Source: Escherichia phage VEc20
Reading direction: 5' to 3' (one strand)
Sequence record: MN022785.1
DNA: 64,000 nucleotides
Positions 1 through 5,787 of this stretch are shown one piece after another. Position numbers and translations under genes: made by a program. The notes below the pieces were generated by a model that saw only the letters and a list, made by a program, of their open reading frames with translations, ran no database searches and was not told the DNA's origin. Every line of letters starts with the position of its first letter. Within the stretch, counting starts at the first letter, position 1.

Positions 1-2178
1 TTAGGCCGCAAGGGCCTTCATAGTTTTAGCGATTTGAGAAACTTCATCATCACTTAAAGAGTTGCGATATCCGATGAAGTCGGAAACAATACGGAATTTC
101 TTGGTAAACTCAGCAACCATTTTATCACTGTTTTTTGAAGCATTATTTGATAATACATCAAAAAGATTAGTTACTGTCCAGATGTCATGACCGATGGTAT
201 CTTTTCCACCATTAAAATATACACCGCGCAATGAACTAACTATATTAGCGAGTCGTGTATATTCTTCAGAAACTTCATCTGTACTGAAGTACTTCATCAT
301 AAAATCTAGTTCAGGATACTTGATAATTTTATCAATATATCGTTGAGCTGAACTTGAATAACCTACGTACTTATCATAATCTACATCATCAAAAGCATCT
401 ACATATAAATCACGCAGAGTTTCAAAAATACATTGGCACTGACCGAGTTCTTTTACCTTTTTCTGCAAAAGCGGACGAATAACATAAAACTCATTAATGC
501 CAATAAGATTAGCCATACGAATCAAAATATTCATAGATGGATGACAAAGAGATGTAGTACCATCCATAGAGAAAATATCAGAACGATGCATATACGCTAC
601 ATACCCAGTAATTTCATCTGCTTCTGATGTGAGCGTAAATAATTCCTCTTTTTCCCAGCGCCCGTCTTTAATTTCAAACTTAAATGCTGTAGCAGCTTTA
701 GGACGAGGAGCTTTACTTTTAACTACCTTTGGAATATAGCTTTTAACTAAAGCTTCAATTTCTGACAAATAATGAATGTTAACTTCATCACTTTCAAACA
801 TCGCCATAATATCAGGAAGCAAATCAATCTGCGATTCTACTTCTGGATTAATAAACAGAAGGCGTTCGTTGTGATGAATATTCAAAGTGTTATTAAATTC
901 ACTATCATCTAACGCATGTGCTAATCCACGGACAATATTAACACGATTTTTAATATTATCAATAACGATATTAATTTTTGTTGCATTAATACCAAACAGA
1001 CGATAACTTGATGCAACGGCTGAAGTTTCATGACTTTGCTTAATGCGCTTCAGTCGAGGGTCAAGATTTACTTCATACACAACTCCTGCATTGCATAACT
1101 TACTATCAGGTTCAAACATGCTTTGCATCTTCTTATATGACAGATTTTTAGTCGTAAATTTGACTGAATTACTAATCATATAATCTCGAGCAGAATACCC
1201 CATCTTCATCAATTCACGATATGTATGACGGGGAGATGTGGATTCTTTAAATCGTTTTACATCTTCATTAAATGCTTTCTCACTGAGTTCTTTAACTCGT
1301 TCAATAATATTTTTACGAGTACGATCATCCAGTGAAAGAGCCTCGCGAGATGGAGCAATATCAAGTGAACCCATTGGAAACTTAATGTAATTCACTTCAT
1401 TGCGAATGCTTAGCCAGTTACGGTCTCTAATAACACCATCGATAGGATAAACAATACCGCCATAGATAGCATATAATCCACCACGATCAGGCCAGTATCT
1501 TTCTGGATTTACACCGTAATAGTCATCAAAATCCGGAAAATAATCAATTTCGCGGTCAAGACCATTAATGATAGCCAAATCTTTGAATGGTCGCATGATA
1601 TAAGAAACTTCATAAGCAAAGTTTCTAAAGTCTTTTTCTTCAACTGGAACTACGATTTCAATACCAGTTTTATCATCTGGACCCATTTCTTTTACGAATG
1701 TAGGTTTAATCTGTGGACCATCACCATCCATGTAAGCTACATAACCACGAATTTCACCTTTATGATACGAAGTAATACTAAATGTATCAGTATAACTAAA
1801 CGGAGATTTAGAACCTAAACCAAACCCGCCAATAAAGTCATTAGATTCAGCCTTAGATGAACTGAAGTATGAATTATATAACCCAGGAGAATTATCATCA
1901 CCCTGAATATCAAAATCACTCATACCCGGACCAAAATCTCGACAAACAAATCGCGGATCTAATCGTCCTGGAACTTGTATGATAAATTTTTCAGGATTTC
2001 CATTAAGTGCATGGGCATCAATCATATTAGTAATTAATTCACGGACTACTGCACGAATCTTGTTTGTATACAAATCAGATGACAGAATTTTAAATACTTT
2101 AGGAGATGCTGTGATGCTAAATGCTTTTGATTTAGAACCATTGCCAAGAATTGTTTCTTTTTCAGTGGTGATAATCAT
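1..2178 (-). CDS. rIIA: rIIA membrane-associated protein (Rex exclusion target)
   Basis: 725-aa ORF, N-terminus [14 protein letters not shown] and length match T4 rIIA; stop at window pos 1-3. Confidence 0.9.
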
Positions 2179-2188
2179 AATTTCCTCA

Positions 2189-2392
2189 TTAATTCATATT
2201 ACGCTTAATAACTTCAGCAACTTCTAGTAATTCATCTTTAGTTGCAGTGTCGGATTGAATTTTATCTCTAATATCTTTAAAGCGGTTTTTAAATTCTTCG
2301 GCTTCTCCCATATCGAAAAAGCGTTGAATGATTCTATATTCTCGATGAACTGCTTTATCAAAAAGTTCTAAATTTACTTTATATGATTTCAT
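2189..2392 (-). CDS. hypothetical protein (rIIA.1 position)
   Basis: 67-aa ORF directly upstream of rIIA, same strand. Confidence 0.6.
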
Positions 2393-2416
2393 TTCAATAT
2401 CCTCATTTGCCCAATT

Positions 2417-2448
2417 AATTATATCACATCCTTGTGGTAAAGTAAACT
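2417..2448 (-). promoter_or_regulatory. T4 early-type promoter (-35 GTTTAC, 17-18 nt, TGaTATAAT) driving rIIA.1/rIIA
   Basis: revcomp reads GTTTAC-tttaccacaaggatgtg-ATATAAT between gene 39 stop and rIIA.1 start. Confidence 0.6.
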
Positions 2449-4267
2449 ACTGGCTCATCCATTCTTTACGAAGGTCAGCATTATCTCCCATGAGCATTTC
2501 AAAAAGCTCTTTCCAGTTCTCAGGAAGTTTAACAACATCATATACTGGATTTTGAATCATCTCACGATATTCAGATTTTTCCAAAGAGCCAAGTCCTTTA
2601 ATATAACGGATGCTATGTTTAGGTAGAGCATCTTTAGCACTCTCATATTCAGCGACTGTATAAAACCATTCTTGTTTTTTACCAATCTGTGCGATGATTA
2701 CAGGAGTTTTGACAAAGCGAATTCGTCCTTGCTCAAACAGTTCTGGCCAATTACTAAAAAATCCAAGCAGAGAAGGATAAATGCTTCCTAGGCCATCATG
2801 GTCAGCATCAGTCATAATAGCGATATTATGATAATTCAAGTTTTCAGCTTTTTCACCGAGAACTAATCCAGTGATTGCGCAAATATCAAATAGTTCTTTG
2901 TTTTTAAGCATATCTGCATAAGACATACCCCAACTGTTGAGAACTTTACCGCGCAATGGATAACCACCGTGAAGTTCTTTATCACGAACATCAATAAGAT
3001 ATCCGATAGCCGAATCACCCTCAGTCAAGAAAAGAGTAGTGTCAGCATCTTTACCACAAAGATTCGCTTTGATATGTTTATGAACCTTAGCTTTAGATGC
3101 CTTTTTAGCTGCTTTAGTTTCTGCTGCTTTTTCTGCCGCCAATTTACGAGCCAAAGCAGCTTCAATAATTGGCATCAGAATTGCTTCATTATTCAAAATA
3201 GCACGTGAAATCTTTTTAGCATCAAGCTGAATATGACTACGGATTTCACCAAATGGAGAAGTCAAACGCTCTTTAGTTTGAGAATCAAATCGCATGTTTT
3301 TCATATCACGAACAAACATAACGATTGTCAAACATTCTTTAACGCGTGCTTTAGTCACATCAATTTTGAACTTACGTTTGATTTGTGGAATAAGGTCTTC
3401 ACAAATATCATCCATAACGCAGTCAATATGATGGCCACCATTCTTAGTATGAATGTTATTGACGTATGTTAATTGACGAAAACCATCCGGTGAACGACCA
3501 ACCGCAATAGAGCAATTTTCTTGTTCTTGAACAATAGCATGCTCATCATATTGGCGTGCATATTTCTTAAAATTGCCCTGAACCTTTTTACCATTAAAGG
3601 TAAATTGAATATCAGGATAAACTACTGCAAGTGTCTGGAGACGATCTAGTGTAATGTCAAGATAAACTTGGGACAGCTCATTAGTTTCAAATGACATAAA
3701 ATCAGGAATGAAAGTAACACGAGTTCCTTTCCATTTTCCAGGAATAGTTTCCCATGATTTATTTTCCATGCCATTTGAACAACGAACTACAATATTATTT
3801 TGACCATCACCAGTTTCACCGACAAACATCACAGAAAAAATGTTTGTCAAACTAGAACCAACACCATTCATACCGCCAGTGACGCGTTCTTTATCATCAC
3901 CAAAGTTACCACCTGCTTTTGGAATAGTCCATGCAGCAACAGGACCAGGAATTTCTTCACCGGTAGGTGTTTTAACCATCGCTTGTGGAATACCGCGACC
4001 GTTATCTTCAACTGTTACTTGATTGTTTTTAATAGTAACATTAATTTTATTTGCGAATTTAAACTTAGTACGAATACCTTCATCTACTGAGTTATCGATA
4101 ATTTCATCAATAAGCTTAACAAGACCAGGTACATACTGAACACTTTCCCATTTACCAAACAGAAAGCGCTCATGCATTTCATTAGCGGAAGAGCCAATGT
4201 ACATGCCGCTACGCTTTTTGATATGTTCAATATCGCTCAGAATTTTAATTTCATTCTTAATCATCAC
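2447..4267 (-). CDS. 39: DNA topoisomerase II large subunit, uninterrupted (gp39 + gp60 equivalent in one ORF)
   Basis: 606-aa ORF; GHKL ATPase motifs (VEDNGRGIP, GGNFGDDKERVTGGMNGVGSS) plus TOPRIM-like C-terminal part; no internal gap or stop. Confidence 0.9.
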   Translation of the reverse strand: MMIKNEIKILSDIEHIKKRSGMYIGSSANEMHERFLFGKWESVQYVPGLVKLIDEIIDNSVDEGIRTKFKFANKINVTIKNNQVTVEDNGRGIPQAMVKTPTGEEIPGPVAAWTIPKAGGNFGDDKERVTGGMNGVGSSLTNIFSVMFVGETGDGQNNIVVRCSNGMENKSWETIPGKWKGTRVTFIPDFMSFETNELSQVYLDITLDRLQTLAVVYPDIQFTFNGKKVQGNFKKYARQYDEHAIVQEQENCSIAVGRSPDGFRQLTYVNNIHTKNGGHHIDCVMDDICEDLIPQIKRKFKIDVTKARVKECLTIVMFVRDMKNMRFDSQTKERLTSPFGEIRSHIQLDAKKISRAILNNEAILMPIIEAALARKLAAEKAAETKAAKKASKAKVHKHIKANLCGKDADTTLFLTEGDSAIGYLIDVRDKELHGGYPLRGKVLNSWGMSYADMLKNKELFDICAITGLVLGEKAENLNYHNIAIMTDADHDGLGSIYPSLLGFFSNWPELFEQGRIRFVKTPVIIAQIGKKQEWFYTVAEYESAKDALPKHSIRYIKGLGSLEKSEYREMIQNPVYDVVKLPENWKELFEMLMGDNADLRKEWMSQ

Positions 4268-4316
4268 TTATCCTCGTTTGGTTTCGGGAATATTATACTC
4301 CGGTAATCATAAAGCT

Positions 4317-4335
4317 AAAGGCCCGAAGGCCTTTT
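4317..4335 (-). terminator. GC stem-loop (aaaggcc-cgaa-ggccttt), UUCG loop on transcript
   Basis: perfect 7-bp stem with 4-nt loop overlapping stop of ORF 4334..4603, upstream of gene 39. Confidence 0.45.
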
Positions 4336-4603
4336 ATTTAAAACGGATAGTCGAATCCTTGAAGAATAGACCAGAACACACGGTTCCTTCTACTTTCTGC
4401 CCAGTAGGTCCAATAGCACGAAATCCAGTATGTTGGAAATCATTTTCAGAGCAACCGAACCAGTTGTATCCAGTGATTTCAATATTAGTAAAACCACTTG
4501 AAGATAAAACTTTGGTTGCATTATCAGCATCAGTACATCCTGCTAAAGACACTGCTAATACTAATGCTGCGATAGAACGATTAATATATTTCATAGTTTT
4601 CAC
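4334..4603 (-). CDS. putative lipoprotein (39.1 position)
   Basis: 89-aa ORF; N-terminal signal peptide with lipobox LAGC. Confidence 0.6.
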   Translation of the reverse strand: MKTMKYINRSIAALVLAVSLAGCTDADNATKVLSSSGFTNIEITGYNWFGCSENDFQHTGFRAIGPTGQKVEGTVCSGLFFKDSTIRFK

Positions 4604-4971
4604 TTAAATTTAATGGCTTGAAGGAGACTAATAATTCTCAAGCGACTTCTTTCATCTTTAACCGTAAATGAAAGAGGGTCACCAGATTTCATAGTGATAG
4701 TGCATTCAAAATCAAAACCTTCGGGGACTTCTTCGAATAGGTCAAATTCTTCATCATATATTAGAACATTACTCTGAAAACTGTGAAGAATTTTTCCATC
4801 ATTTCCAGATGCTGTACTAATCATTGTAACATTATTACCTTTCATATCTTCAACGATAAATTCGCTTGTAGATATTACGGCATTAATAGAACCATTCCTA
4901 TAAATAGCAGAAAATAGATATTTCTGTTCTTCACCTTCACGAATGCGATATTTCTTACCGATTTTAAACAT
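4600..4971 (-). CDS. hypothetical protein
   Basis: 123-aa ORF, start overlaps stop of next ORF. Confidence 0.55.
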   Translation of the reverse strand: MFKIGKKYRIREGEEQKYLFSAIYRNGSINAVISTSEFIVEDMKGNNVTMISTASGNDGKILHSFQSNVLIYDEEFDLFEEVPEGFDFECTITMKSGDPLSFTVKDERSRLRIISLLQAIKFK

Positions 4972-4973
4972 AA

Positions 4974-5150
4974 TTACCCTTTAAGTAAGTCGTAAAATCC
5001 ACCATTCACATGCTTAGGAGCAGAAGGCCGACGAGTAGACAGACGATGACATTTAGGGCAAACATCATTTTCTCGTTCAGAAATCTTTTTAATTTTTTCA
5101 TATTCATGCCCGCAATCTTCGGATTGGCATTTATAATCATACATTGGCAT
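4974..5150 (-). CDS. small zinc-ribbon protein (CxxC...CxxC), 58 aa
   Basis: hand-translated MPMYDYKCQSEDCGHEYEKIKKISERENDVCPKCHRLSTRRPSAPKHVNGGFYDLLKG; below ORF-track cutoff; stop 2 nt from next start. Confidence 0.45.
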   Translation of the reverse strand: MPMYDYKCQSEDCGHEYEKIKKISERENDVCPKCHRLSTRRPSAPKHVNGGFYDLLKG

Positions 5151-5152
5151 AA

Positions 5153-5572
5153 TTATTCCTTAAAGTGTGCTTTCAACATCTGATACAAGGACCATGCTTG
5201 TTCATTATTTTCAATAGTAACTTTCATGATCGGGAATTCTGTGAAATCTTCTATTTGTTCTTGCTCTTCCTGCTCTTGTTCTTCAGCTGCCTGATATGGA
5301 TTTTCCACTTCATTAAAGAACTCAGCTTCGCTCGTTGAAAGCCAAATAAAATCTTCATCCAAAATATCTTTACCGGAGGATAACGCCAATCTTCCAGTAG
5401 ATGTCACAATTTTAGTAGGACGACCAAGATGGTCAATATCTATAACTTTAAAAGGTTCCATACCTAAACGCCGCGCATAGATTCCGTTATCAGTATGGTC
5501 TTTAATAAAATTTTCTTGAGCTTGTTTATTTTTAAATTGATACCATTTATTAACTTCAAATTTAATAGCCAT
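5153..5572 (-). CDS. hypothetical acidic protein (goF position in T4 order)
   Basis: 139-aa ORF with [10 protein letters not shown] acidic tract; name positional only. Confidence 0.5.
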
Positions 5573-5787
5573 TAATAAATTTCCTTCCAGTAAGTTGTAC
5601 CATCTTCAGTGATTTCACGAAATACACCGTAAATTGGTTGTTTATCCCCAACCTTTTCATACACATAAACCGAAGTCAAGTGAGTAAACTTAGCAGTGTG
5701 TTCCTTTTGAACTACTACCAAATCTGGATCGAATAACACATCTTCAAATTCGTCATTAGTGCAGTTCTGAACAATTTTACGTTTCAT
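5572..5787 (-). CDS. hypothetical protein (cef position in T4 order)
   Basis: 71-aa ORF; positional. Confidence 0.5.

Follow-up and report, generated by a model that had tools for sequence, protein, structure and literature searches.

Gene 39 of Escherichia phage VEc20 is the uninterrupted form of the Tequatrovirus topoisomerase II large-subunit gene

Within the 64-kb stretch of the Escherichia phage VEc20 genome analyzed here (64,000 nt, hereafter the window), positions 2447..4264 of the minus strand almost certainly represent Tequatrovirus gene 39 in its parental, uninterrupted form, that is, a gene which has not been invaded by the mobA cassette found in T4 and which is translated normally. 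The single uninterrupted ORF described at 2447..4267 in an initial annotation is present, and lies on the minus strand. This arrangement is no notable deviation, since the uninterrupted form is the majority and parental state: gene 39 of VEc20 is the already described standard form, and a nearly identical protein has a solved structure. The coding region and its start are delimited by the following features.

2447..4264, minus strand: coding sequence of gene 39 ('60plus39'), the GyrB-like ATPase plus Toprim large subunit of the phage topoisomerase II, 605 aa (ORF list, Pfam, PHROG and identity to T4/T2/T6)
2449..2447, minus strand: stop codon of gene 39
4265..4267, minus strand: in-frame GTG one codon 5' of the ATG, origin of the 606-aa count and probably not the start
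4271..4275, minus strand: Shine-Dalgarno sequence GAGGA, 6-7 nt 5' of the gene 39 ATG, presumably the ribosome-binding site

The ORF list of the window holds a single ORF at 2447..4267 on the minus strand, which counts 606 aa from GTG. With stop codons expected at ~7.9% of codons from the base composition of the window, a stop-free run of 605 codons has a probability of ~3e-22, and the gene 39 ORF is therefore not a chance occurrence. The length of 606 aa given in the initial annotation applies to a count from the GTG, whereas the likely ATG start yields 605 aa. This ATG (4264..4262) is the codon right after the GTG, and it is very likely to be the start of gene 39 on three grounds: it yields a protein beginning with MIKNEIKIL..., the same N-terminus as that of T4 gp39; the gene 39 CDS of Yersinia phage PYps32T and of T2 are annotated from ATG with 605 aa (at the identical coordinates, 2447..4264, in T2); and the GAGG of the Shine-Dalgarno sequence (4275..4272) is 7 nt away from the ATG but only 4 nt from the GTG. 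The same GTG-ATG pair is also found in T4 and T2, both of which have the CDS annotated from ATG. Although GTG can serve as a start codon and no other in-frame start lies between it and the upstream stop, translation from 4267 to give a 606-aa product is quite improbable, considering that the Shine-Dalgarno spacing is better for the ATG and that the gene is annotated or expressed from ATG in T4, T2, PYps32T and T6 alike. For annotation use, the data support a single 605-aa gene 39 whose start is the ATG at 4264.

The gene 39 product matched PHROG 543 ('DNA topoisomerase II large subunit') over its full length (E=1.5e-295). Pfam searches identified the GHKL ATPase domain (HATPase_c, 38.4 bits versus a cut-off of 26.4), the transducer domain (DNA_gyraseB, 51.1 bits versus a cut-off of 27) and the C-terminal associated domain (TOPRIM_C, 30.5 versus a cut-off of 29). 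The Pfam Toprim model itself stayed below its gathering threshold (17.5 versus 23.1 bits), which is compensated by the presence of the E...DxD motif and by the match to the T6 structure. In addition to the motifs given below, the motif scan located DNGRG and GMNGVG in gp39.

4079..4105, minus strand: N-box of the GHKL ATPase, EIIDNSVDE, aa 54-62 (motif scan; Pfam HATPase_c)
3272..3280, minus strand: QTK loop of the transducer domain, aa 329-331 (motif scan; Pfam DNA_gyraseB)
3008..3022, minus strand: Toprim catalytic glutamate motif EGDSA with E415 (motif scan)
2792..2809, minus strand: Toprim acidic motif DADHDG (D486, D488, D490, G491), contiguous (motif scan, codon reading)

The best match in the PDB was 8ylu_C (T6 gp39), aligned over residues 1-605; human Topo II alpha/beta and yeast Topo II matched at E~1e-56 to 1e-59, and ParE/GyrB at 1e-36 to 1e-48. 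Chain C of 8YLU is the large subunit of T6 topoisomerase II, in which E415, D486 and D488 are the Toprim metal ligands, with residue numbers equal to those encountered here (PMC11461880). The order GHKL ATPase, transducer and Toprim is shared with cellular GyrB/ParE and with the N-terminal half of eukaryotic Topo II. In contrast to these cellular enzymes, the phage enzyme employs a short GyrA-like partner (gp52, 442 aa). A tblastn search for gp52 gave no match in the 64-kb window, as predicted by synteny, since gene 52 sits ~4 kb beyond rIIB in T4, T2 and RB14, that is, outside the range of this window.

The enzymatic activity of VEc20 gp39 can be predicted from its near-identity to the characterized T6 enzyme. 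Conventional translation would provide the GHKL ATPase, the transducer and a complete Toprim domain on a single 605-aa polypeptide. This subunit and gp52 would be expected to assemble, as their T2 and T6 counterparts do, into an ATP-dependent type IIA topoisomerase of A2B2 composition. From what is established for the T4 topoisomerase, such an enzyme would relax DNA but not supercoil it.

Comparison with T4 shows the same enzyme subunit, made there as two polypeptides from a split gene and here as one. By blastp, residues 2-474 of the window protein (GTG numbering) correspond to T4 gp39 1-473 with 98.3% identity, and residues 473-606 (GTG numbering) to T4 gp60 27-160 with 94.8% identity (E=4e-95). 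The initial annotation had proposed that the ORF covers gene 39, the mobile segment and gene 60, and that its C-terminal ~160 aa align with gp60; the homology to gp39 and gp60 is borne out, but the mobile segment is absent and the part homologous to gp60 amounts to only about 128-134 residues. T4 gp39 ends in 43 residues, and gp60 begins with ~26-31, that are encoded by the cassette and are missing from the VEc20 protein.

At the DNA level, window 4595..2847 aligned with T4 5660..3911 at 96.4% identity and window 2782..2100 with T4 2793..2111 at 98.1% identity, whereas between 2847 and 2782 only a stretch of 46 nt (2838..2793) aligned, at 78%, with T4 2899..2854. The break of the alignment at 2847/2846 and its restart at 2782 indicate that T4 has swapped 64 parental nucleotides (2846..2783) for ~1.1 kb. 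The components of this T4 insert are the tail of gp39, mobA/60.1, the head of gp60, 'homR' (a diverged version of the segment that was replaced) and the 50-nt gap. Manning & Atkins (bioRxiv 10.1101/2022.08.31.505936) describe a 64-nt deletion, a homR at 67-81% identity and, in the T4 clade, 9 further cassette-derived nucleotides past the gap; the size of the replaced segment and the homR divergence seen here agree with their figures. Outside the junction, the 91 nt 5' of gene 39 are identical in the two phages, and the region past the stop is nearly so. The two relevant sites in the window are as follows.

2783..2846, minus strand: 64-nt parental segment, in whose place T4 carries the ~1.1-kb mobA cassette (CTE, mobA, NTE, homR, 50-nt gap), as given by the alignment break
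2791..2792, minus strand: position of the T4 UAG stop and 50-nt gap, here GGC (Gly491) followed by CTA (Leu492), as given by codon reading

As an allele that is parental in sequence, gene 39 of VEc20 provides a clean reference which delimits the T4 cassette to the nucleotide (2846..2783 replaced).

The absence of the bypass element, as suggested initially, was confirmed at every level analyzed: no UAG stop, 50-nt gap, hairpin or mobA was encountered. Reading the codons across the gene 39 junction gave ATG ACT GAT GCT GAC CAT GAT GGC, CTA GGA AGC (M T D A D H D G, L G S), with neither a UAG stop after the Gly codon nor a 50-nt gap, whereas the T4 sequence reads GAT CAC GAT GGA, then TAG CCTTCGGGCTA...TTGGA, and resumes with TTA GGT TCT. 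T4 thereby possesses matched GGA take-off and landing codons; the VEc20 gene has none, its Gly491 codon being GGC. The T4 take-off hairpin (10 bp, UUCG loop) folds at -14.7 kcal/mol (z -4.71), and none of 200 shuffled sequences folds as well, while the homologous 31 nt of VEc20 fold at -1.3 kcal/mol (z +0.85), in agreement with the hairpin absence that the initial annotation had proposed to verify; an 81-nt context is no more structured than shuffled sequences (z = -0.17). Fuzzy searches on both strands of the whole 64-kb window retrieved neither the 50-nt gap (<=12 mismatches) nor the take-off stem-loop (<=4 mismatches), and tblastn of the intact HY01 MobA on the whole window gave a best E of 0.66. 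When the T4 insert DNA (blastn) and its encoded peptides were compared with the window, matches were restricted to the homR counterpart; among the peptides, the 20-aa homR stretch alone found a match, whereas neither the CTE of 43 aa nor the portion unique to the NTE matched anything in the window. A T4-type split gene carrying the cassette-encoded CTE and NTE was accordingly rejected, given one ORF and no CTE/NTE match.

The proposed T2-type arrangement was also supported. T2 gp39 has 605 aa, the same coordinates, 602/605 identical residues and no indels, the only substitutions relative to T2 being F70L, T173D and I527V. The gene 39 codons of the two phages differ by 64 synonymous and 3 nonsynonymous changes, which indicates strong purifying selection on gene 39. 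More generally, point substitutions alone set the gene apart from the T2/T6/RB14 form, along with ~4% DNA differences that are mostly synonymous and nothing structural, and its neighbors rIIA, rIIA.1 and 39.1 are the same in those phages. Window 2100..4700 is 99.9% identical to PYps32T, ~98% to RB14 and ~97.7% to T6, hundreds more Tequatrovirus records match it, and the same gene is annotated as '60plus39' in RB14. Regarding the junction itself, the 141-nt stretch 2760..2900, within which the 64-nt segment 2846..2783 lies, shares 98.6% identity with T6, and 2760..2880 (121 nt) differs from T2 at 6 positions, 2 of them within 2838..2793.

To count the two forms, the phage collection was searched with a 141-nt query that bridges the insertion point as well as the gap point. 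This junction was contiguous in 435 phage records and broken off at the insertion point in 42, T4 and HY01 among them, so that the uninterrupted form makes up ~91% of the group, and the T4 split gene with its 50-base ribosome hop is the rare exception. As a cross-check in the same collection, the T4 cassette itself was present in 43 records. A longer 2.6-kb query was covered in 495/529 records, a figure which includes T4-type genomes (pieces <=~1.8 kb apart being joined) and is not a count of uninterrupted genes. This is the form that reviews and the 2022 preprint describe as parental, under the names 'Topo2L' or '60plus39'. The topoisomerase II has two subunits in T2 and T6 and three in T4 (PMC11461880).

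Three other readings of the uninterrupted gene were weighed against these data. That a T4-type arrangement was overlooked, as a recoding signal inside the ORF or as a cassette elsewhere in the window, has a negligible probability: nothing speaks for it, the sole resemblance to the T4 insert being the 46-nt homR counterpart (2838..2793), which is ordinary coding sequence, and it is opposed by the continuous frame without a stop, by a hairpin that does not form at the site, by the empty gap and stem-loop searches on both strands and by a tblastn search in which the intact HY01 MobA found nothing better than E=0.66. In a 'hit-and-run' scenario, the cassette would once have split gene 39 and would later have been excised, with re-fusion of the ORF. 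This phenomenon does occur in other clades, and such re-fusion is known from an Aeromonas phage clade (clade 7), in which the fused ORFs retain CTE- and NTE-derived residues (Manning & Atkins, bioRxiv 10.1101/2022.08.31.505936). In VEc20, however, no peptide of the CTE or of the unique NTE matched in the window, the gene is exactly colinear with those of T2 and T6 at 605 aa without indels or extra residues, and the 64-nt segment is of the parental type (98.6% versus T6 over the 141-nt junction) and not of the homR type (78%), all of which renders such a history extremely unlikely.

A clean secondary loss, by homologous recombination of a cassette-bearing ancestor with an uninvaded phage, is somewhat easier to envisage, because Tequatroviruses recombine freely and because gene 39 is 96-99% identical between phages with and without the cassette. 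Nevertheless, positive evidence for it is lacking, it is unparsimonious with ~91% of the records uninvaded, and the identities of 99.9% to PYps32T and ~98% to T6 suggest a nesting of VEc20 among uninvaded genomes; we therefore regard such a loss as having only a small chance of being correct. If it were true, the allele would have the parental sequence without the parental history, and the identity and working of the gene would be unchanged. The reading as an uninvaded, normally translated parental gene is retained.

According to Manning & Atkins (bioRxiv 10.1101/2022.08.31.505936), the MobA nick/recognition region lies inside the 64-nt parental segment, and the 50-nt insert is the protecting feature. 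Since this segment is intact in VEc20 and the nick site is placed within it by the literature, mobA homing would, in mixed infections, presumably find a naive recipient in this phage. Two synonymous differences relative to T2 fall in the MobA recognition region (ATC versus ATT at Ile481, position 2822; GGC versus GGT at Gly491, position 2792). That these would make the allele refractory to MobA nicking, and thus a cassette-free 'immune' allele, is very improbable, because the ~20-30% diverged homR did not stop MobA nicking when the 50-nt insert was absent, according to the account of Bonocora et al. 2011 given by Manning & Atkins (bioRxiv 10.1101/2022.08.31.505936).

Close to the QTK loop, the T4 reference differs from the window at aa 326-328 (window 3281..3289), reading MRLIRQTK where VEc20, T2 and the T4-type phage HY01 read MRFDSQTK. 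In the DNA of T4 gene 39, one nucleotide is deleted and, 8 nt from it, another is inserted (ATTTGATTCT vs ATTGATTCGT), a pair which amounts to a compensating frameshift just before the loop and which is either an error of the reference sequence or a peculiarity of the laboratory strain.

The genes surrounding gene 39 are all on the minus strand, in the order rIIA (1..2178), rIIA.1 (2189..2392), gene 39, 39.1 and more small genes, which is that of T-even phages. Position 1 of the window falls exactly on the rIIA stop codon, where many T-even genome records begin by convention, and the records of T2, T6, RB14 and Sf21 have gene 39 at the same coordinates as the window, which is therefore the opening 64 kb of a deposited Tequatrovirus genome. 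Several putative regulatory elements flank the gene or recur along the window.

4292..4319, minus strand: promoter-like element, with a MotA-box-like TTTAGCTTTA (4319..4310), a 12-nt spacer and TATAAT (4297..4292)
4317..4334, minus strand: cUUCGg-tetraloop hairpin (AAAGGCC-TTCG-GGCCTTT) between 39.1 and 39, identical in T4 and T2
2418..2446, minus strand: candidate sigma-70-like promoter, TTTACT, 17 nt, TG-TATAAT, 10/12 matches
4328, 20535, 27791, 29961, 34671, 35941, 38309, 52715, 56287, minus strand: nine C(UUCG)G hairpins

The 91 nt 5' of gene 39 that are identical to T4 contain the cUUCGg hairpin, TTTAGCTTTA, the 12-nt spacer, TATAAT and the Shine-Dalgarno sequence. Judging from the consensus, 4292..4319 is a putative T4-type middle promoter, and the hairpin at 4317..4334 may act as a terminator or as an RNA-stability element. 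C(UUCG)G hairpins are frequent in T4 intercistronic regions. In the window, hairpins bearing the extra-stable C(UUCG)G tetraloop plus 5-6 additional stem pairs were found at the nine positions given above, on the transcribed minus strand, and once, in a weaker form, on the plus strand. The hairpin at 4334..4317 and the T4 take-off hairpin have the 10-mer GCCTTCGGGC in common. Downstream of gene 39, the first base of the candidate promoter at 2418..2446 adjoins the gene 39 stop codon; the element is directed at rIIA.1/rIIA and is conserved in T4 apart from one substitution.

Upstream, 39.1 (4334..4594, minus strand) encodes an intact protein of ~86 aa whose signal peptide is of the lipoprotein type and which has a lipobox (MKYINRSIAALVLAVSLAGC...). 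In the T4 reference (5394..5675), 39.1 has an altered lipobox (LINS) and is put out of frame by an insertion of 1 nt, as a result of which only the distal 65 aa are annotated in that phage; T4 39.1 thus looks like a decayed copy of the gene that is intact in VEc20. Between 39.1 and 39.2 lies an ORF of 123 aa (4600..4971, minus strand), which belongs to PHROG 622 (function unknown) and weakly matches a goF-like family. The locus is small and variable, comprising only ~100 nt in T4 and being annotated as a shorter 105-aa version in T2.
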